DNA from: an uncultured delta proteobacterium
GTDB taxonomy: Bacteria; Desulfobacterota; Syntrophia; Syntrophales; UBA2185
Direction of reading: 5' to 3'
NCBI GenBank assembly: GCA_963729715.1
Contig: CAVSPA010000006.1
Span: 384,001-448,000 of the forward strand
Length of the DNA stretch: 64,000 nucleotides
This document shows, one piece after another, positions 1 to 37,892 of the stretch (the stretch's first letter is position 1; each line of letters starts with the position of its first letter). Under the pieces are notes generated by a model that saw only the letters and a program-made list of their open reading frames with translations, ran no database searches and was not told the DNA's origin. A program made the position numbers and the translations under genes.

Positions 1-2627
1 AGGATCACCATATCAATTTCACCTTGTTTTTCTTTGTATATATCTACGGCTTCGCGACCGCTCCTCGCTACAGAAACCTTGTACCCCAGCACCTCCAGGA
101 TCTCGCTGCCCACATCAATGATCACGTCTTCGTCATCCACGAGAAGGATTGTCCCCTCACCCCTTGCTATGTCTGTTGAGACTTTCTCTTCCTTGACAAG
201 CTCTTTCTCTGAAGCAGGAAGATAGATGGTAAACGTCGCCCCGTGGCCCTTTTCACTGTATACATCTATTATACCGTTGTGGCCTTTGACAATACCGTAG
301 ACAGATGCAAGACCGAGACCCGTACCCCTTCCCATCTCTTTCGTCGTGAAAAAGGGCTCAAAGATTCTGTCCCGCGTCTGTTCATCCATCCCGATACCCG
401 TATCGGTTACAGCGATCCGTACATACCTTCCGGGCTTCACACCATACGGTCTAGCGGACTCCTCGTCAAGAAAGACGTTAGCAGTTTCCAGATACAAATC
501 GCCGCCGCCAGGCATGGCCTGCCAGGCATTGACATAAATATTCAAAAGCACCTGCTCTATCTGCCCGCGATCAACCTCCACCGCCCAGATATTGTCCTTG
601 TGGTTACGGTGAATAGTAATTTCCTTCTTCGTTCTCCCGAACATGGCTGACGTCTTGTTGATAATTTCGTTCATATCGGTTACGGCGACTTCATATTTGC
701 CGCCACGGGCAAAGCCCAATAGCTGCTTGGTCAGCTCGGCGCCGCTTCTCACCTGATCTTCAATTCCCTTTAATTTATCATAAAGAGGGTGAGTGATATT
801 CATATCGAGAAACATTAGAGAGGCATACCCCTGTATGCCCGTGAGGAGATTGTTGAAGTCATGGGCGATGCCTCCGGCAAGAGTACCCACGGCTTCCATC
901 TTCTGGGCATGGAGCAGCTGTGATTCAAGCTGTTTCTGTTCGGAGATATCCCTGAATATTCCCACGATACCTGTTACATTTCCCTTTAAATCAAGATTTG
1001 GGGCTCCACTTATATTAAATACCCTTTCGGACCCATCTTTGTGCAGAATCGTGCCGACCCTGTCCCTCAGAATAAGTTTTCCATCCCTTACCTGCTCAAA
1101 AAGGAGGAGGTATTCTCTGGCGTCCTTCTTTGCCATAAAATCGACAAAATTTCGTCCTATGACCTCATCGGTCCGATGTCCCAGAATTTTCTCCCAGACG
1201 GGATTTATATAAGTAAATGAACCATTAAAATCAAGAGTGTAAATAATATCAGGAGCATTCTCACTTAAGGAGCGGAACCGCTCTTCGCTTTCGAGTATTT
1301 TTTGATAGGATGTCGCATTATTTATGCTGATGGCTATGTGGGTCGCGATCCCCATGAGAAGGCTGACATCACTCTGCGTAAGATGCCTCTTTGATCTGAC
1401 GTTATCAACCATCAGGACGCCGAGAGACTCGTGTTCGAAAACAATGGGAACGCATATGAACGACTTGGCACCCATCATTCGGGCAAACTCATGACTCTTC
1501 TTCGAGAGGCTGTCTTCTATTTCGGAAATATCATCAATCAGGATAGGTTTCTGCAAACGAAAGGACTCCACTGTAGGTCCCCTCGAATTAGGCCTATTAA
1601 GGTGAAACGCCACACCTGTGAGAAATTCCTCATGCTCAGGGTTGTAGCCATAACCAATGGCATACACGAGACGGGTTCTATCCTGGTTGGCAAGCATGAT
1701 CATGCCCCGATCAAAATCAAGACGTTTCTCCATGGCTTCCATAACTAGCTTGAGCAGTTTTTCGCTATCCAAAATCATGGAGGTTGCCTGGCCGATCTCC
1801 TGAATGAGGAGGGCATTGTTATAACGGATGTTGATCTCACCTAACAGGTTATCGGCTAAATCACCCTGCTTTTTCAGGTTTATCGCAAGCTCCTTTTTTT
1901 CTACATACTCAGAGTAAAAAACAAAAATAAATACAAGCAATACATAGAGCAAAACGGGCACTGCCCAAGCCCACTCGGTATCGTGGAGAATAAAGAATAA
2001 GATCGGGCAGACCACAAAAGCCGAAAGTGCGACGTAATTGCGGACTGTCTTCCACGTAAAAGAAGGCACTTTCTCCCAGCTTATAATATAGCGGCAACTG
2101 CCTCCTCCTTTATGAATACAGGTCGGGTGTTCTACACTGGCGAATTTGGTTGTGAAAAGTTTGGCAATTGCCTCGAAGTTTGCGAGCCGATACTGACATT
2201 GAAAGGGTTTCTCTTCTACGCCGGGGTTTGGGGTGACGACAATTTCGACCTGGTTTCTTCCAAGACTTCTTACATGAATGGTTGAGGCGCGACTGAAAAA
2301 ATGATGCAGTTTACCAAGGACTGAGTAAGCGACGGAAGGCGTTATAAAACCCAATGCGTATTGCGATACGGCGCCACCAGCTTTTGAGAATGGAGCATTA
2401 CGGCCGACATTCTTGGGAATGTCGGGGTCTTTTGTTTGTTGGGTCATGCCTTCGTGAAAAAGATCTATTTGCCTCTGGCTGAACCAGTGCCCCCCATCTT
2501 CGAGCTGGTAGGTTGTAATTCCGGCATAATTGAGAAGCGTATCTATATTGACATCGGGATGATGCTCGTTAAGGTATTCAATGTAGTTCTTAATCAGTCT
2601 GCTGCTGTATAATCCGGCGTCATTCAT
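1..2627 (-). CDS. Hybrid sensor histidine kinase/response regulator (V4R/H-NOX-like N-terminus, 2 TM, GAF, PAS, HisKA, HATPase, REC); runs off the left edge
   Basis: Not in the ORF track because it has no stop inside the window. Hand translation from ATG 2627 gives [19 protein letters not shown]..., V4R-like CQYRL...[20 protein letters not shown], a hydrophobic stretch, GAF ([20 protein letters not shown]), PAS ([11 protein letters not shown]), H-box [14 protein letters not shown]-boxes (DTGIGMD, FFTTK, GTGLGL) and REC ILLVDDE. Confidence 0.9.
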
Positions 2628-2652
2628 TCTACGATTCTCAGGATAAATTGTA

Positions 2653-4743
2653 CTACTCGTATTTCATTCTAAAATGGCGCTGCACGTACTCCATAAATTT
2701 ATTGGAATGGCGCATATTCGTGATCCATAGTTGATACTTCTTTTCGCTCGGGATGTGCATAACATCAGAATAAACGGATGGATAAATTAAAAGAGGAATG
2801 CTGTCAAGGTGATAAACCCCCGTTAGTTGGCCAACAGCAAGAGAAAGAACTTCCCAAGGCAAATTCTCCGAGTCAACTACAATAGCGTTTATGCCATTTA
2901 AAAGCTCAGATAGATTTACTCCCACATCAGACTGATTAACAATCATAACGGCTCTCAGATAGTCCCCTTCTGTAAGTGAGTATACTTCCCATTTTCTTGT
3001 GAAACCGAGCCGTTGGGATACGTGCTCCAGTGAGTCCCCCGTAAGGTCATTTTTCCCTAAATTTAGCACATCGAACAATAACCCTCCGGAGGAATGTTTC
3101 AAAAATTGCTCGAGGTGCCATAATTCGGATTTGGTGCTTTCGTGTAATGACCAGCCCCGTGGCAGTTCTTTCTGGGGTATTCCGACAGGAAATGTCATAT
3201 AAGAAAAGAGGTCAAGCGAACAGATACGGGGATTATCCAACTTTCTCGCAAAGCCGCCGAAGACGCGATCGGGAAATTTGTTCTCCGGGCGGAAGAAGCA
3301 CATGACGTAGTCCATATTTGCGGAAGGAAGATGGTACATGCCGTACAAAAAAAGCATCATATGTTTTAGAATCTGAAAGCCCGGCAGTTTATTGTGCATT
3401 GGCCTCGCCGCGTGGTGATGTATCAACCAGGCGCGCTCATAGGCCCTGAGCATGGACATATGACCGTATATTCGCCCATTTTCCTCGTAGGTAAAATGCA
3501 TGGCGATTTCGGCATTTTCCTGATAGAGCTTTCTGTAGGTATTCTTAAAATCTTCCCGCCGGTCATGGAGTAGTTTATACTTCTTAGGGTATATGAAACC
3601 GGTATCGAAGAAGAATTCCCAGAGGGCATCCATATCGACTTCCGTGGATATGCAGGAATGATGATCCATATTTAAAGCAATGATCCTATTCAAACGGCTG
3701 TAGCTGTGGACGTCCATATCCAGGATGGCAATGCCGCAGCAGACTTTATTTTCCTCCTGCTTCTTGCGGTAGATTACCTGGGCCGTACAGTTCATTTTCA
3801 GCTCCCCGGCATAGATTATTGACAGCCCATGTATAATCATGCCCGGCAGCAATATGCCCTCTATGGCATCGTCATACACAGAAAAACCAGTAATGGAGAT
3901 GTCTGTGATTTCTCGCTGGACTTTTCTTCCAAAAAATGGATGTTCAAAGATGGCCATCGGAGGGGGGAATATCCGGTGGCGGGGATGGCGAATCGTTCTC
4001 GTCTGGAAGCGTTTGATCTGTTCACTCGGGGGGGCAACGACGATTTCCCAATCGTGAGTTTCATGCGTTTGTCTTAAACAGCGGCAGTTTCCCGAAAAAA
4101 GCATTTTACCGTCGCTCGTTAATCTGATGGTAACCGTGGCATCGGGATTGAATTCGTGATATGATGAGGGCATTTCAGGGCTTACTCTTATGCGGAAAGA
4201 CTGCGGGCTGAAATCTATAAGGCTGCCCCTGGCCAAAAAGCCGCTCTGCGTCAACTCCACAGTGACATCCCGGCAGGGAAAGCGATTTGTCACTCGCTTG
4301 CTTATAAGGTAGCTCTCGTCCGGCAGCTCTACCTTAAATCCTGCACTGTCTATACCGAGAAGTTTTGCAGGAATAAGGATGATGGACTGTTGATCCATTA
4401 CTATCAGGTAACTGAACTGGAAATTTTCCAGGCCGAAACTCATGTGACTCTTATCCCAGGAACAGGCTAATTCGTCTCCTTCGATAGCTTCCGGCATTGC
4501 ATTTACAAGAATAGCTTGGTCATACTTAGGATGGCGCAACAGGGCGCAGATAGGATCGCCCATAAAATGGATCCGGTTCAGAGTATTCATCAGATTCTCT
4601 TTTTTGATGTGGCTGCCGGCATCGATGGCGTTAATGAGATCATCGTGCTGAAAAAACCACAGGGGCAGGAATGGTTCCTCAGGAGCCTTTCTGACTTTCC
4701 CGATGTCAATGAGGATGGGTTGCCTGATTTTTTTGTCTTCCAT
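2653..4743 (-). CDS. Tandem PilZ-domain protein with uncharacterised C-terminal GNAT-like domain
   Basis: 696 aa; PilZ-like motifs KRVTNRFP...DFSPQSF and RTIRHPR...DISITGF; C-terminal ~330 aa with GRIYGHMSMLRAYERAWLIHHHAA and YVMCFFRPENKFP. Confidence 0.7.
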   Translation of the reverse strand: MEDKKIRQPILIDIGKVRKAPEEPFLPLWFFQHDDLINAIDAGSHIKKENLMNTLNRIHFMGDPICALLRHPKYDQAILVNAMPEAIEGDELACSWDKSHMSFGLENFQFSYLIVMDQQSIILIPAKLLGIDSAGFKVELPDESYLISKRVTNRFPCRDVTVELTQSGFLARGSLIDFSPQSFRIRVSPEMPSSYHEFNPDATVTIRLTSDGKMLFSGNCRCLRQTHETHDWEIVVAPPSEQIKRFQTRTIRHPRHRIFPPPMAIFEHPFFGRKVQREITDISITGFSVYDDAIEGILLPGMIIHGLSIIYAGELKMNCTAQVIYRKKQEENKVCCGIAILDMDVHSYSRLNRIIALNMDHHSCISTEVDMDALWEFFFDTGFIYPKKYKLLHDRREDFKNTYRKLYQENAEIAMHFTYEENGRIYGHMSMLRAYERAWLIHHHAARPMHNKLPGFQILKHMMLFLYGMYHLPSANMDYVMCFFRPENKFPDRVFGGFARKLDNPRICSLDLFSYMTFPVGIPQKELPRGWSLHESTKSELWHLEQFLKHSSGGLLFDVLNLGKNDLTGDSLEHVSQRLGFTRKWEVYSLTEGDYLRAVMIVNQSDVGVNLSELLNGINAIVVDSENLPWEVLSLAVGQLTGVYHLDSIPLLIYPSVYSDVMHIPSEKKYQLWITNMRHSNKFMEYVQRHFRMKYE

Positions 4744-5145: not shown

Positions 5146-6003
5146 TCATTCGGCGGATGGCTTCCGATTTAGTTGCGGCGGTCTCTTAATCTCAATATAA
5201 CCTCCCAGACCGACGGCTTTGAATATCTCCTCGATGGTTGCGCCCATCGTATGCACTATCATTCCCTCCGGATCAGGCATGGGTGATAATAATACCAGCT
5301 TGTTATCAAACCTTCTGAAGCTCAGGTCTACGATGCTGTAGGCTACAATGACGACGCCGGATAGAGAAATAAGCTCCCTCTCAAGCGTGAGGCACGTGGT
5401 GGAAATTACATCCTTCAGGAATTCCGGCAAACCAAATTTCTCCATAAATTTCATGCCGAGCTGTGATTGATGCTGAGAGATAAAATCATCGTCTATCGCC
5501 GCTTGCTCATACTCATCTTTATACAGCGACTTGTAGAGGGCGATGATGATCTTACCGATTTCGAGGAGAAGGCCCCCTATCTCTACTCTTCTTGTGTCGT
5601 CGTCCCTCAGGCCGAACTCTTTCGCGAGAATCCTGCCCCCGATTATGGAAGTTGCAAAACTTTTTGCGCAAATAATTCTCACTTCCTTGTCCTTTGACAG
5701 GGCTGCAAACGACAAGAATATTATGAGAACACGGGCAAAGTCCATGCCCAGCCGGGAAACAACCTTGTAGAATGTATCGACAGTTCCTCTTTTCAGATGC
5801 CCGTAATAGGCGGAGTTGGCTATGCTGAAAAGTCTTACCAGGATTTCGTCTCCCACTTTTGACTTCAAAAGCTCAATCTCACTCTCGTCCGCGTCGGGAT
5901 CGCTGAGCACGGCAAGCACGTCCGGATTAAAACCGACGTTGACATTGTTGAGAATCTTATCTTCAATATCTAAAATTATCTGATTAACTGTTTCGGCGTC
6001 CAT
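5146..6003 (-). CDS. HDOD domain signalling protein (degenerate HD motif)
   Basis: RLFSIANSAYYG...VVSRLG and GLLLEIGK (canonical LLHDIGK); AGGAG RBS upstream. Confidence 0.8.
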   Translation of the reverse strand: MDAETVNQIILDIEDKILNNVNVGFNPDVLAVLSDPDADESEIELLKSKVGDEILVRLFSIANSAYYGHLKRGTVDTFYKVVSRLGMDFARVLIIFLSFAALSKDKEVRIICAKSFATSIIGGRILAKEFGLRDDDTRRVEIGGLLLEIGKIIIALYKSLYKDEYEQAAIDDDFISQHQSQLGMKFMEKFGLPEFLKDVISTTCLTLERELISLSGVVIVAYSIVDLSFRRFDNKLVLLSPMPDPEGMIVHTMGATIEEIFKAVGLGGYIEIKRPPQLNRKPSAE

Positions 6004-19957: not shown

Positions 19958-21592
19958 TCAACTCCTTTCGGCAACGGGTGTTCCCTCACCATAGACGAGC
20001 ATCCGATATGCCTTTTCAATTCTGCCCCAGTTCTCCTCTCTGTCCATGGACCAATACCTGCCTATGGCGGAGACTACCTTTCCGAGATTGAGGTCCCTGC
20101 ATTTCTGTTCCACCATCTCTATATACTTGGCCCCGCTCTCCTGCAATTCTCCGCGCCTGCCGAGCATGGCATGAATGAAGACATCCCTTATTTCCTCCTG
20201 CTTCGCGATATCCATCAGGGCAAGAAGGTGATTGACAGATCCATGGGAACTGAAGAACGACACGATACCCATAATGTGTAGCGCCTTGCCGCTATCCTTG
20301 GCGTTACGTATGACATGCAGAAAAGCCTCATTATGAAAAAAAGATCCATCGGCAATGGACTGATCGATTTTCACCTTGTCGGATAAAATTCTTCTCCCCG
20401 ACCCTATGTGGAGGTGTCCGGCTTCAGAGTTGCCGACCGTCCCCGCGGAAAGGCCGACAGCTTCACCGGCAGCGGCAAGCAGCGTATGAGGGTATATTTT
20501 CTTGAGCCTGTCCATGGCGGGGGTGTTGGCGCGGGCTATCAGATTTCCCTCGCTGCTTTCATTTTCGCCCCAGCCGTCGAGAATCAGAAGCAGGACCCGC
20601 CGGGTTTTTTCCTCGGATGGATCGACGCGTCGCCGGGATGTTTTTTTTATTAGTGAATGCCCTGTCATGTACGGCGATTGGGGAATACCCATCAGCTCGA
20701 GAACAGTGGGGGCGATGTCTGCAAGCTCTCCTTGCTCGCGGAGGGATATGTCGCGATCAGTGTGCACGAGAATGAAAGGGACATGGCTATCTGTATGTCC
20801 TGTGTCGATGGTGCCGTCCGGATAGAGCCATTTTTCAACTGTACCGTGGTCGGAACTGACGATGGCGACTATCCCTTCTCTTGAAGCCTCGGCGATAATA
20901 TCGCCCATGCACGTATCCACGGCTTCGACCGCCTTAACGATGGCTTCTTCATTTTCTATGTGGCCTACCACATCGACATTGGGGAAGTTTATGAAAATGA
21001 AATGATAAGAAGGGTCGCGAATTTTTTCCTGGGCTTTTTCCGTGACGGCATAGATGGACATCTCCGGAGCTTCGTCAAAGAGGACAACATCTCTTCGAGA
21101 CGGAACGATGACCCTCTCTTCTCCCGGCAGGACTTCTGTGTTTTTACCGTTGAGGAAGAAGCCCACGTGACTCGCCTTTTCAGACTCCGTGATCTTGGCC
21201 TGTTTCAGGTTATGCCTTGCAAGGACTTCGCTCAGGGTGTCTTTGATCGCGCCCTCCGGCGGAAAGGCAACGCTAACGTTCAAATCCTTCTCGTATTCTA
21301 TCATCGTGGCAAAATGAAGAGTCAGGTCATTCTCCACCGGAAATTTGTCGAAGCCTGCATCCGTCAGGCTCTGGGTAAGTTCGACTTCTCTTTCTCCCCG
21401 GATGTTATAGTATATTACGGCATCTCCTTTTTTCAATCTTCCCACTGGCCCACCCTTACAATCAAACAAAACGAGGGGAGGGAATGTCTCATCATCTTTC
21501 CCATTCCTGTATGCATTTTTAACTGCACGAGACATGATAGACCTAATGCTTGCCATGGATTTTTCTCTCTTAGTCAATAAAGCTTTCTGCAT
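19958..21592 (-). CDS. gpmI: Cofactor-independent phosphoglycerate mutase family protein, circularly permuted
   Basis: iPGM motifs present but in swapped order: DETF/NIRGER/ESEK/NVDVVGH/SDHG/GHT/LADIAPT come first, then LILDGWG/GNSEAGH/GRY/MDR. Alternative start at 21556. Confidence 0.85.
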   Translation of the reverse strand: MQKALLTKREKSMASIRSIMSRAVKNAYRNGKDDETFPPLVLFDCKGGPVGRLKKGDAVIYYNIRGEREVELTQSLTDAGFDKFPVENDLTLHFATMIEYEKDLNVSVAFPPEGAIKDTLSEVLARHNLKQAKITESEKASHVGFFLNGKNTEVLPGEERVIVPSRRDVVLFDEAPEMSIYAVTEKAQEKIRDPSYHFIFINFPNVDVVGHIENEEAIVKAVEAVDTCMGDIIAEASREGIVAIVSSDHGTVEKWLYPDGTIDTGHTDSHVPFILVHTDRDISLREQGELADIAPTVLELMGIPQSPYMTGHSLIKKTSRRRVDPSEEKTRRVLLLILDGWGENESSEGNLIARANTPAMDRLKKIYPHTLLAAAGEAVGLSAGTVGNSEAGHLHIGSGRRILSDKVKIDQSIADGSFFHNEAFLHVIRNAKDSGKALHIMGIVSFFSSHGSVNHLLALMDIAKQEEIRDVFIHAMLGRRGELQESGAKYIEMVEQKCRDLNLGKVVSAIGRYWSMDREENWGRIEKAYRMLVYGEGTPVAERS

Positions 21593-35051: not shown

Positions 35052-35135
35052 CTATAAACGGCAGGTTTCAGTGTCGGCTCCGGTTTTTGGGAAAAGAAGT
35101 TTAATATCTTGAAATGCCATTTGGGGAGGCATCAA

Positions 35136-37892
35136 ATGAAAAGAGTATTGCGACGGTCCATACTGATTATTCTAATTCTGCCTTTGATGGTTATGTTTCA
35201 GAGCTGCGTAGTTGCCACAAAGGAAACTGCCATCACGCCTCAGATCAGAGATCCCTTTAAGGGCACGTACAAAGTAGACCCTTACATGGAAAAGCACAAA
35301 CCCCAAACCGTTGCGGTTCTTCCCTTCGTCAATCTGGCAAAAAGCCAGAAAGGGTCTGAGGAGGTCCGCAAGGCATTTTACAATCACATGAGCTCCCTGC
35401 CGTATAAAGGCATGAAACCTTATGTCGTGGATAATAATTTGAGGAAGGCGGGACTCGACGATCCGGAGGCCATCAACAAGATGTCTCCCCAGGAGTTGGG
35501 CAAGATCCTCGGTGTGGATGCCGTCGTCTACGGCAATATCTCGGATTTTGACAAGTTGTTTGCAGTTATCTATTCCTCCGTCTCTGTGGGAGCGGAGATC
35601 AAGATGTATGATACCAAGACAGGCAACTTTCTCTGGAGCGGCCAGCACGTCGCCCGCATTCAGGAAGGCGGCATTTCTACTAATCCTGTCGGCATCATTG
35701 CGACGGTCATTGCCACGGCCATGAATTTGAGGGACATCCAATTGCTCCGAGCCTGTGATGATCTCTTTAGGGACATGGTGAAGACAATCCCCGTGCCGAC
35801 CAGAGCAGAAGCCCTCCGGCCGCCCGTCATCACTCTCCTCACGCAGGATACGAAAAATATGCCGAAGAAGGCGGGCGATGAAATCAAGGTGGTCATTCAG
35901 GGTGCGCCCAAGATGCAGGCCTATTTCGATATCGGTGATTTTAAAAGAAACATAGATATGCAGGAAGTTGAAGCGGGCGGATACCTGGGCGTCTACAAAG
36001 TCATTCCCGGGGATAACGTGACAAAGGCCGTGATTACGGGCTATCTCAGGGATGAAGCAGGCAATACCGCTCAGTGGGTTGATGCAGTAGGAACGGTAAC
36101 TCTCGACACCATACCGCCTGATAAAATCAAGAACGTCAGGGCCGTCGGAAGAAATAAGGTCGTTTTTCTCGGCTGGGAAAAGTCGCAAGCCACGGACCTC
36201 GCGGGATACCTGGTCTATCGCAGCAACACCCCTCTTTCCGGTTTCCAGCAGATTGCGAAGACGGAATTGAACGAATACCGCGATGAGAATCTCGTCAATG
36301 CGCAGAAATATTACTATCAGGTTACTGCTGTAGACTGGGCGGGTAACGAAAGCGACAAGTCTGATACCATGACCGGCATGCCTGTGGAGCCCGGGCCGAC
36401 GCCTGTTTCCGGCATCATTGAATCCGATACCACCTGGTATGCAGGCGCGAGTCCTTATATAATCAAGAATGCAGTGATCGTCAAAGACAAGGCCCTTCTC
36501 ACTATTGAGCCGGGCACAGAGATACGCTCACAGGGAGGCGCCCTTGTGATCGAAGGAAGGCTCATTGCGCAGGGGGATGAGGAGCACATTATTCTGTTCG
36601 ATGCGGCCGAAGGCGTGAAATCTTGGGACGGCATAGCCTTCAGCAACGTCAAGGAAAAGGAAAATCTGGTCAAGTTCTGCCGCATCAGGAATGCGGCAAC
36701 GGGGATCACATGCCAGGCGTCTTCACCGCAAATAGAAGCCTCTGAGCTTACGGATAACGACGTTGCCATAAAGGTCTCGGGCGCCTTTTCCAAACCGCAG
36801 GTCGTGAAGAATACAATCCATAAAAACATGGAAGCCGGGATCGTTATTACAGACGGAGCCCAGCCCAAGCTGATGGAGAACAATATCCAGGATAACATCA
36901 AAGAGGGCATCGTGATTCAGTCGTCTGCCCCCTTAATTACTCACAACAGGATTACGCGAAATGAGGGGCAGGGAATAATTGTAAAGAACTCCCATCCCGT
37001 AATTAATGAAAACGATATAAATGACAACAGGCAATTTGATATAGCGGGCGATATGACGGGAGAAGCCGTCAACGCCCTGAACAACTGGTGGGGCTCTGCC
37101 AAGGGTCTCGAGATACTGGCGAGGATCCACGGGAAGATCAACATAAAGTCCGTTCTTAATGCATCCTATCCTGAAGGGAAGCCGCAGGAGCTGCCCATAC
37201 TGAATCAGATCCTCGGCGGACCTATCAGGGCGGACGCCTTCCTCATCCTTTCCAACAGTCCTTACCGGGTGGCAAAGGATGTCGTAATCGATGGCGGGGC
37301 GACCCTGTATATCGAACCCGGTGTGACGGTCGAATACGACCAGAATACATCCATCATTACGGAAGACGGAGGTGTTGTGGCAAAGGGCACCAAGCGGTAC
37401 CCGATCGTATTTACGGCTTCCGGTAATTCTCCGTCTCCCGGTTTTTATAATAATGCCGTAAGACTGACGAAACCTACAAAGGTAAACAGCGCCTTTGCAT
37501 ACTGTATCGTCAAATTTGCAAACATCGCTTTTGACATTTATTATGGCGCGCCGGAAATCTCGTCTTGCAGAATTGCGCACAATGCGCAGGGTGGCATATA
37601 CACCCGTAATGACGCGTCCCCGAGGGTATTCTATAATACATTTGCCGGCAACCTCGGAGAAGGTGCCATCAAGTGCGTAGGGATGTCGAATCCCGTCATA
37701 CATAATAATAACTTCATCGACAACACAGTAGCCATCCAGACATTCTCCTCCATCTATATCGATGCGAGAAACAACTGGTGGGGCAGTAGCAGGCCCGATC
37801 AGAACGTAATCTGGGGAGATCTGGAGAAAAATATCAATATTAAGCCATGGTTACAAGCCCCGGAAAGCAAGGCATTTACGGAAAAGAAATAA
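35136..37892 (+). CDS. Large lipoprotein: DUF799/GNA1162-like domain, Ig/FN3 region and two parallel beta-helix modules
   Basis: Lipobox FQSC; VAVLPFVN...PQELGKILGVDAVVYGNI; FN3 (DLAGYLVYRS, YYYQVTAVDWAGNES); two SPY...LxIEPG...NNWWGS modules. Confidence 0.75.
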   Translation: MKRVLRRSILIILILPLMVMFQSCVVATKETAITPQIRDPFKGTYKVDPYMEKHKPQTVAVLPFVNLAKSQKGSEEVRKAFYNHMSSLPYKGMKPYVVDNNLRKAGLDDPEAINKMSPQELGKILGVDAVVYGNISDFDKLFAVIYSSVSVGAEIKMYDTKTGNFLWSGQHVARIQEGGISTNPVGIIATVIATAMNLRDIQLLRACDDLFRDMVKTIPVPTRAEALRPPVITLLTQDTKNMPKKAGDEIKVVIQGAPKMQAYFDIGDFKRNIDMQEVEAGGYLGVYKVIPGDNVTKAVITGYLRDEAGNTAQWVDAVGTVTLDTIPPDKIKNVRAVGRNKVVFLGWEKSQATDLAGYLVYRSNTPLSGFQQIAKTELNEYRDENLVNAQKYYYQVTAVDWAGNESDKSDTMTGMPVEPGPTPVSGIIESDTTWYAGASPYIIKNAVIVKDKALLTIEPGTEIRSQGGALVIEGRLIAQGDEEHIILFDAAEGVKSWDGIAFSNVKEKENLVKFCRIRNAATGITCQASSPQIEASELTDNDVAIKVSGAFSKPQVVKNTIHKNMEAGIVITDGAQPKLMENNIQDNIKEGIVIQSSAPLITHNRITRNEGQGIIVKNSHPVINENDINDNRQFDIAGDMTGEAVNALNNWWGSAKGLEILARIHGKINIKSVLNASYPEGKPQELPILNQILGGPIRADAFLILSNSPYRVAKDVVIDGGATLYIEPGVTVEYDQNTSIITEDGGVVAKGTKRYPIVFTASGNSPSPGFYNNAVRLTKPTKVNSAFAYCIVKFANIAFDIYYGAPEISSCRIAHNAQGGIYTRNDASPRVFYNTFAGNLGEGAIKCVGMSNPVIHNNNFIDNTVAIQTFSSIYIDARNNWWGSSRPDQNVIWGDLEKNINIKPWLQAPESKAFTEKK

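Follow-up and report, generated by a model that had tools for sequence, protein, structure and literature searches.

A PilZ/double-GNAT protein and a sensor with an H-NOX-like fold form a conserved candidate acyl-signal cassette in Desulfobacterota

Organization of the locus

The 64,000-nucleotide stretch of DNA analysed here (the window; positions 384,001 to 448,000 of contig CAVSPA010000006.1 in assembly GCA_963729715.1, from an uncultured member of the Syntrophales) begins with two reverse-strand genes. One encodes a 696-residue protein that combines three PilZ-type β-barrels with a double GNAT domain, and the other a hybrid sensor kinase with an N-terminal domain of H-NOX-like fold (Table 1). 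A first-pass annotation had proposed that the two proteins make and sense an acylated signal, and had placed the first gene only 25 bp before the start of an intact kinase. The open reading frame (ORF) coordinates confirm that gap (4743-2653 for the first ORF, 2627 for the kinase start). The kinase is likewise an unbroken 946-residue frame that ends at C6:383787 in the genome, and its kinase and receiver motifs are intact (H589, N700, D742/G744 and G768-G772; receiver D877 and K927). Over the 875 residues inside the window it scores 296 bits against the CckA equivalog cut-off of 1000 in NCBIfam, and thus does not reach it. Both core genes are present in one copy each in the host genome, which matches at 84-89% place among the Syntrophales. 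Outside the window, 45 bp past the kinase stop, lies a gene for a 696-residue protein that Pfam identifies as a fusion of an enolase-superfamily domain with an α/β-hydrolase.

Table 1. Coordinates of the core genes, their domains and adjoining genes. Positions are those of the window unless a locus or genome handle is given; E, expectation value; Z, fold-search score; rmsd, root-mean-square deviation.
Feature	Position	Strand	Basis
Three PilZ-type barrels + double GNAT, 696-aa gene	2653..4743	-	ORF, AlphaFold2 model, fold searches
Barrel 1, residues 37-149, YcgR-N/PilZN-like	4297..4635	-	5y6h YcgR-N Z 9.5, rmsd 3.1, 103 aligned, model 40-149
Barrel 2, residues 150-240, PilZ	4024..4296	-	8u0i Z 9.8, rmsd 2.3
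Barrel 3, residues 249-362, PilZ	3658..3999	-	PF07238 E 9.6e-9; 4xrn Z 12.7, rmsd 2.2
Double GNAT, residues 363-696	2656..3657	-	Fold matches to HisAT 9emp, 9emd
Hybrid sensor kinase, 946 aa, 875 aa inside window	1..2627	-	Stop 213 bases beyond window start
H-NOX/V4R-clan ligand domain, residues 1-190, Cys-His-Cys-Cys zinc motif	2058..2627	-	Model + fold search
Pair of adjoining hydrophobic helices (residues 199-237), membrane hairpin by prediction	1917..2033	-	Hydropathy
GAF, residues 288-435	1323..1766	-	PF01590 E 1.4e-16
PAS, residues 449-561	945..1283	-	PF00989 E 1.4e-14
HisKA (581-642) + HATPase (686-806) kinase core	210..887	-	Pfam, motifs
Receiver domain start (827-939 in full protein)	3..149	-	Pfam
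Enolase-superfamily + α/β-hydrolase fusion	L001:9651-11741 = G000:C6:381651-383741	-	Cys nucleophile motif GWCQG
O-methyltransferase, 358-aa gene, facing operon	L001:8529-9605	+	Pfam
HDOD-domain gene upstream of pair	5146..6003	-	PF08668 E 2.9e-12

The PilZ/double-GNAT protein

The AlphaFold2 model of the 696-residue protein (predicted local distance difference test, pLDDT, 92.7) shows three β-barrels and a two-domain C-terminal half. Two PilZ-type motif sets had been reported, and their sequences are all present (RVTNR at 150-154, DFSPQS at 177-182, RTIRHPR at 249-255 and DISITG at 281-286), but the barrels number three rather than two. Barrels 2 and 3 match PilZ domains with bound cyclic di-GMP (c-di-GMP) in fold searches (Z 9.8-12.7). 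In the 138-sequence alignment behind the model and the motif counts, barrel 2 keeps the RxxxR arginines (R150 in 128, R154 in 129) and the final Gly of DxSxxG in only 29 sequences. Barrel 3 has a full DxSxxG (D281 in 106, S283 in 122 and G286 in 133 sequences) and arginines spaced as RxxR (R252 and R255, each in 133). Because barrel 2 has RxxxR only and barrel 3 has DxSxxG with RxxR, binding of c-di-GMP by this protein is predicted to be likely but not certain.

The C-terminal half had been described as GNAT-like, with a GNAT, FeeM or LuxI fold expected. Fold searches run as a check on this expectation upheld the GNAT fold but not the architecture, since the model has two GNAT domains as against the single catalytic GNAT of LuxI/FeeM-type synthases. 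RpaI appeared at rank 50 (Z 9.2), no LuxI or FeeM Pfam model was among the matches of 38 GNAT regions at E ≤ 1, and the fold matches listed contain no FeeM- or OlsB-type structure, which excludes nothing. The best matches were to HisAT, a double-GNAT amino-acid N-acyltransferase (9emp, Z 12.7, rmsd 6.0, 271 aligned; 9emd, Z 12.2, rmsd 4.9, 263 aligned), one structure entry of which contains N-myristoyl histidine. Further double-GNAT matches over residues 357-690 were Ta0821, GlmA, a clavulanic-acid GNAT, VipF and NMT (Z 9.3-11.4). Identities to the fold matches are only 7-12%, which leaves the substrate uncertain although the fold itself is secure. Conserved residues of the 138 sequences cluster in the first GNAT, where H443 is invariant and H428, W439, G455 and N488 are nearly so.

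Neither the protein nor its profiles had a meaningful match when compared by sequence with solved structures, NCBIfam gave no family for it, and searches aimed at more distant or stand-alone GNAT forms brought up mostly pieces of this one family. The ESM Atlas gave leads only: at 0.95-0.97, clusters of 344-373 residues from Thermodesulfobacteriota and Acidobacteriota, and at 0.86, a cluster that contains a GNAT. In three PilZ-GNAT homologs (P0174, P0186 and P0173), the fused PilZ-GNAT part is preceded by NERD nuclease-like and Ser/Thr kinase domains. At loci L084-L088 the protein is a 950-residue variant with an additional N-terminal PilZ-type region, and its partners are double-kinase sensors without GAF, radical SAM pairs and an epimerase/short-chain dehydrogenase, with an acyl carrier protein (ACP) at L088.

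The sensor and its ligand domain

The kinase's N-terminal domain had been assigned a V4R-type signature. Its placement in the V4R/H-NOX clan withstood the corresponding fold check, but the modelled domain (residues 1-190, pLDDT 90.5) matches H-NOX (4u99, Z 16.8, rmsd 2.8, 175 aligned) and the VirS N-terminal domain (Z 14.5) above the V4R domains of DmpR and PoxR (Z 8.4-8.5); Bet3 scored Z 9.2. The Pfam V4R model matches 38 of 54 family members at E ≤ 0.01 (best 1.9e-7) and does not match the window protein itself. The zinc motif reads C144-x22-H167-x2-C170-x7-C178, with C144, H167 and C170 invariant and C178 conserved in more than 90% of 54 rows, and it aligns with His161, Cys164 and Cys172 of Shewanella H-NOX. 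Of a glycine hinge, G75 is invariant in the sensor family and G149 is conserved in more than 90%, with Ala in the window protein.

The proximal His of H-NOX is not conserved at positions 108-110, where 34 of 67 rows have Tyr at 108 in an alignment that contains a few mis-cut second matches. YxSxR, the haem-propionate motif of H-NOX, is absent from the sensor-family alignment. The window sensor has His108 and His109 in the helix that matches αF, so that haem is possible for this protein alone.

One hydrophobic helix follows the ligand domain in 75 of 100 relatives and two follow it in 25. Because the hydrophobic hairpin comes after it, the ligand domain itself is probably cytoplasmic. The same input module is found on CckA-like and Hpt kinases, on HD-GYP domains and on class III cyclases. 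By motif, 59 of 126 sensors have a kinase output, 17 an HD-GYP domain and 17 a cyclase, the remainder being truncated or other, and a fusion to a σ54 AAA+ activator was not seen among them.

Four loci with two sensors (L037, L040, L162 and L092) pair differing outputs, either a kinase with a cyclase-length protein or a kinase with an HD-GYP protein. At L031:12727-15084 the sensor C-terminus runs into a major facilitator superfamily transporter domain, possibly by frameshift or assembly artefact, and at L202 (genome G364, same genus) the sensor and O-methyltransferase frames are fragmented by frameshifts that may be sequencing errors.

Linkage of the two genes across the phylum

We surveyed 401 Desulfobacterota genomes, evenly drawn, and a set of loci consisting of the best 80 of 529 GTDB matches and the best 80 of 519 metagenome matches, at least three of them duplicates. 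The GNAT protein was found in 47 of the genomes, the sensor in 45, both in 40 and neither in 349. Related genomes are not independent, and we therefore give no p-value for this co-occurrence. The expected linkage of PilZ-GNAT and sensor genes thus proved tight and phylum-wide (40 of 47 GNAT genomes). Three of the seven genomes with the GNAT gene only carry a more distant sensor beside it.

Among the 80 GTDB loci were 69 informative ones; in 52 of these the gene after the GNAT gene is the sensor, which lies within the locus in 58. Where at least 5 kb of downstream sequence was available, the sensor was found in 36 of 40 loci from GTDB and in all 36 from metagenomes. The two genes often overlap by four bases. 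Even the most distant GNAT variants (21-23% identical) retain sensor, methyltransferase and radical SAM partners. A dedicated S-adenosylmethionine-dependent methyltransferase is present in 39 genomes, 36 of them GNAT-positive, and is absent from the host genome. Lipid-type neighbors occur as well: FadL at three loci and, in a single locus apiece, ACP, cyclopropane-fatty-acid (CFA) synthase and an M20 amidohydrolase.

Seven loci have a MinD/ParA-like ATPase gene between GNAT and sensor genes. Upstream of the GNAT gene, an unannotated protein of 270-300 residues with a helix-turn-helix-like N-terminal start is encoded at L016:6590-7429 and at seven other loci; it has no Pfam or NCBIfam match.

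The initial proposal of a synthase-kinase pair is thus supported insofar as the candidate synthase and receptor are conserved neighbors with cognate pairing, but some receptors have an output other than a kinase, and a third component, an exchangeable enzyme slot, had been missed.

An exchangeable enzyme slot

This third component was examined at 87 loci that carry a sensor and extend 5 kb or more downstream, a set that includes the window's own locus and the qualifying members of 20 hand-picked loci and that holds at least three duplicates. The slot is occupied by a methyltransferase at 50 loci and by an enolase-superfamily gene at 19, and never by both. An O-methyltransferase is found at 12 loci, all close relatives, never alongside the usual methyltransferase, for which it may substitute. 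Two PP-loop families, hydrolases, B12 radical SAM enzymes and an M20 amidohydrolase (L124) occur in the same place.

Slot enzymes have been swapped between strains whose GNATs are more than 90% identical. When the enolase label is mapped onto a tree of 85 GNAT proteins, 16 changes are needed, of which supported branches force 13; this is no fewer than with shuffled labels. A swap was seen in about 7 of 13 independent pairs and the reverse in none (median p 0.016); the reverse is impossible where enolase and methyltransferase never co-occur, so this test mainly counts independent swaps. Both the label-change and the pair counts rest on a quick tree.

The enolase retains its metal ligands and both Lys bases, and its fusion to the hydrolase recurs at five loci on separate branches. 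The nearest solved relatives of the enolase profile are 2p88, which we take to be the N-succinyl-Arg racemase BC0371, and dipeptide epimerases. Racemase activity of BC0371 on N-succinyl-Arg has been reported (PMC2948282). Carboxylates or N-acyl amino acids serve as substrates for enzymes of the enolase superfamily and for PP-loop and M20 enzymes, and for this reason a small acylated acid is the simplest substrate that they might share.

We compared pairs of loci whose GNATs are 80-99.5% identical, leaving out three two-sensor loci. Ligand-domain identity averaged 0.72 in 19 different-slot pairs and 0.83 in 25 same-slot pairs, as against GAF identities of 0.80 and 0.835 and a GNAT identity of 0.87 in both groups. 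The ligand domain thus diverges more than the GAF domain when the slot enzyme changes. A column-by-column scan of sensor residues against slot type returned mostly clade-driven positions, with position 146 noted as an exception. There, Tyr is found in three of five enolase-hydrolase loci (the window locus among them) on separate branches, Asn in all 40 methyltransferase loci belonging to the pair set, and Ser at a further methyltransferase locus, L102.

A sister cassette with another acyltransferase fold

The enolase family is not specific to the GNAT cassette, being present in 81 of the 401 genomes, only 9 of which have the GNAT gene. Among 20 enolase loci examined, 18 lacked a GNAT gene; 15 of these 18 carry an LpxL-type acyltransferase, 12 a detectable sensor with the H-NOX fold and 7 FadL. 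The sister sensors form a subfamily homologous to that of the GNAT cassette (hhalign 98%, E 1.6e-13), in which Glu replaces the zinc His, a membrane helix is mostly lacking and an N-terminal Cys is invariant.

We sought the sister genes in a selection of 160 genomes, of which 80 were enolase-positive, 38 were GNAT-only and 42 had neither, with profiles built from 12 of the 160. The acyltransferase was found in 41, the sensor in 45, both in 40 and neither in 114. Five genomes carry both cassettes with both sensors, and at least 83 of the 401 genomes (47 + 41 − 5) hold either cassette, with the sister type sought in the 160. The two cassettes draw on common families, with identities of 50-53% for the enolase, 51% for PP-loop, 36-59% for radical SAM and 39-40% for FadL proteins; L186 is left out of these ranges, as its slot enzymes share 49-70% but its genome has no match to either acyltransferase. 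Two enolase relatives (L200 and L203) lie outside both cassettes, one adjoining a long unannotated gene and the other arn-like lipid A modification genes.

Two unrelated acyltransferase folds fill the same role among these genes, and each is paired with a receptor subfamily of its own. We regard this as the strongest argument for the predicted function, the transfer of acyl groups to a substrate that is small or a lipid.

Comparison with known systems

The first-pass annotation recognised no characterised system here, and we found no description of either cassette in the literature searched, which lacked most subscription journals and supplements. The words GNAT and acetyltransferase do not occur in the main texts of two PilZ surveys (10.1101/814665 and 10.1101/2020.02.11.943704). 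By its published description, PixB (MXAN_2604) of Myxococcus xanthus resembles the 696-residue protein in joining PilZ domains to a C-terminal GNAT; it binds c-di-GMP in vitro despite incomplete second motifs, and its acetyltransferase, of unknown substrate, has been proposed to be stimulated by c-di-GMP (PMC8316039). PixB differs in being described with two PilZ domains and one acetyltransferase domain, and the main-text passages on it mention no linked sensor of H-NOX fold or tailoring enzyme (PMC8316039). HfsK is a precedent for c-di-GMP control of an acyltransferase (PMC5362036). Nas343 and Nas354 also combine a GNAT-fold acyltransferase with PilZ, make N-acyl amino acids and have a proposed role in signaling, but theirs is a single N-terminal FeeM-type domain with a catalytic Glu, and the passages describing them report no operon or receptor (PMC4897644). 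The double-GNAT fold of HisAT/NAT16, GLYAT and NMT, with its active N-terminal domain, fits the conservation pattern of the 696-residue protein (PMC12219266). These enzymes differ from it in having no PilZ domain, at 7-8% identity and rmsd 5-6 Å, and their substrates cannot be transferred to it.

On the receptor side, the H-NOX/HnoK/HaCE systems of Shewanella and Vibrio share the fold, the zinc motif, the glycine hinge and outputs to kinases and c-di-GMP enzymes (PMC7108781). In contrast, the sensor described here has no conserved proximal His or YxSxR, is fused through a membrane hairpin and GAF to its output, and is linked to an acyltransferase. The V4R A domains of XylR, DmpR, MopR and PoxR and the VirS N-terminal domain belong to the same clan and have the zinc motif and a pocket for small hydrophobic ligands, but they sit on transcription factors rather than on enzymes predicted to be anchored in the membrane. 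In LuxI/LuxR and, reportedly, in PhcB/PhcS of Ralstonia, the gene of the synthase of a fatty-acyl signal lies beside that of its cognate receptor, and the Phc system reportedly includes a methyltransferase and a sensor kinase. Neither shares a synthase or receptor family with the cassette, which differs further in the c-di-GMP-type barrels on its predicted synthase and in its exchangeable outputs and slot. The cassette is conserved and undescribed in the literature searched, and would be a synthase-receptor system built from new parts.

Proposed function and alternatives

We propose, with a probability of roughly 55%, that the cassette makes an acylated small acid under c-di-GMP control, that the slot enzyme tailors it, and that the domain of H-NOX fold senses it and acts through a kinase or second-messenger output, probably between cells. 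The genes of the predicted synthase and sensor stand side by side, frequently overlap and co-occur across the phylum. c-di-GMP at the conserved arginines of barrels 2 and 3 would set acyltransferase activity, as in the proposal for PixB, and the N-terminal GNAT, which bears the conserved residues, would use acyl-ACP or acyl-CoA. The acceptor would be a small acid, most likely an amino acid. The enzyme occupying the slot, one of several across loci, might then tailor or inactivate the product by methylation, racemisation, adenylation/amidation or hydrolysis; at the window locus this would fall to the racemase-like enolase fused to a Cys-nucleophile hydrolase, with the O-methyltransferase facing it. 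A hydrophobic product could partition into membranes, bind the ligand domain, predicted to be cytoplasmic, in the place of haem and act on the output through GAF and PAS. That output is a hybrid kinase here and an HD-GYP domain or class III cyclase elsewhere, and HD-GYP outputs would feed back on c-di-GMP. The weakest step is the last, in which the molecule would travel between cells. We are fairly confident that a small molecule links the two proteins and less sure that it is a cell-to-cell signal. The swappable carboxylate-acting enzymes, the sister lipid acyltransferase and the FadL and ACP neighbors lend indirect support to a small acylated product.

Several observations weigh against this proposal. 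RxxxR and D/NxSxxG occur together in neither PilZ barrel, and both motif sets are incomplete. The canonical CoA loop R/QxxGxG/A is found in 4 of 138 sequences in the first GNAT and in none of 138 in the second, only G455 of the loop being conserved; this scarcity is compatible with the use of ACP and equally with loss of activity. Double GNATs that acylate proteins (NMT, VipF, Eis) or sugars (GlmA) score within 1-3 Z units of the best match at 7-12% identity, and some of the slot enzymes are similar to families that modify sugars (WbuX-like, NAD-dependent epimerase). A close sensor is absent from 7 of the 47 GNAT genomes, the partners are unlinked in several genomes of family f33, and FadL is rare beside the GNAT cassette (the three loci above) and does not adjoin it in the host. 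Six of the 87 slot loci have none of the slot enzymes tested, the comparison of receptor pairs rests on about six independent swaps, with L001/L002 and L022/L161 contradicting it, and the locus sets contain the duplicates mentioned above. One homolog, P0160 (893 residues), is fused directly to a HisKA-HATPase core, a single case that fits a role at the protein level.

Alternatively, the cassette might make or remodel a sugar of the envelope or an aminolipid-like structural lipid of the membrane, with the sensor monitoring an intermediate in the same cell for homeostasis rather than communication. LpxL-type enzymes do acylate membrane lipids, the neighbors include B12 radical SAM, CFA synthase, ACP, WbuX-like and epimerase genes, and the ligand domain is predicted to be cytoplasmic; HfsK, which binds c-di-GMP, is thought to modify holdfast polysaccharide (PMC5362036). 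We nevertheless consider such a role rather unlikely. Slot swaps between nearly identical GNATs, together with the shift in the ligand domain, are what signal diversification would be expected to produce, the loci surveyed have no recurrent family of exporters, flippases or glycosyltransferases at the edge of the core, and each acyltransferase family has its own sensor subfamily even in the five genomes with two cassettes.

It is also conceivable, if distinctly improbable, that the 696-residue protein has the sensor, or some other protein, as its target for acylation or direct binding and that the methyltransferase resets this target, so that c-di-GMP would act by covalent modification or complex formation. 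The four-base overlaps suggest translational coupling, the P0160 fusion and the protein-acylating double GNATs among the fold matches point the same way, as does the invariant N-terminal Cys of the sister sensors, and PixB, with its unknown substrate, acts upstream of Frz (PMC8316039). However, the methyltransferase is replaced by enolase-superfamily, PP-loop and M20 enzymes, which act on small carboxylates, the sister cassette uses a lipid acyltransferase fold, and in some genomes the partners are unlinked. The sensor might instead detect redox state or gas through zinc-thiol or haem, like H-NOX of Vibrio and Shewanella, with the acyltransferase merely a co-regulated output. H-NOX is indeed the best fold match, the zinc motif aligns with the Shewanella site, the window sensor has its two His in the αF helix, and in Vibrio this zinc site mediates redox sensing without haem (PMC7108781). 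We give this possibility very little weight: His is not conserved at 108-110 and YxSxR is lacking, whereas the proximal His is absolutely conserved in the H-NOX set of PMC7108781, and a redox sensor would need neither a subfamily for each acyltransferase nor any tracking of the slot.

If an acylated small acid is indeed made and sensed, the H-NOX fold would gain a haem-independent small-molecule ligand and c-di-GMP would be tied directly to signal synthesis; the cassette would also suggest a substrate class for PixB-like proteins. More tentatively, and at somewhat less than even odds, Desulfobacterota might share a phylum-wide acyl-signal system with haem-less H-NOX receptors and two recruited synthase folds, in which the exchanged tailoring gene sets strain-specific dialects that the receptor pocket tracks. 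The hosts are syntrophic or sulfate-reducing, and their partner-dependent lifestyle makes chemical communication an open question; for such bacteria, the literature searched contains no synthase-receptor system of this composition. A candidate synthase, receptor and modifying enzymes are now named and lend themselves to tests in E. coli that need no culture of the host.

Other features of the window

The HDOD-domain gene upstream of the pair was considered as a core member and rejected, as it adjoins the pair only in close relatives (seven loci, with the window's own locus counted twice). Promoter and terminator scans gave numbers close to chance (16 versus 15.9 and 14 versus 10.5), and a search of sequencing runs listed no RNA run as a match. 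The rest of the window (6494-64000; 34 ORFs scanned) is mostly housekeeping, with genes for enoyl-CoA hydratase, a Na/Pi transporter, tRNA synthetases, MutL and CoA biosynthesis. A cofactor-independent phosphoglycerate mutase at 19958-21592 (reverse strand) has an odd domain order, its Pfam iPGM_N match being C-terminal (409-539), and the 927-residue protein encoded at 35109-37892 (forward strand) combines a GNA1162-like lipoprotein domain with a right-handed β-helix.

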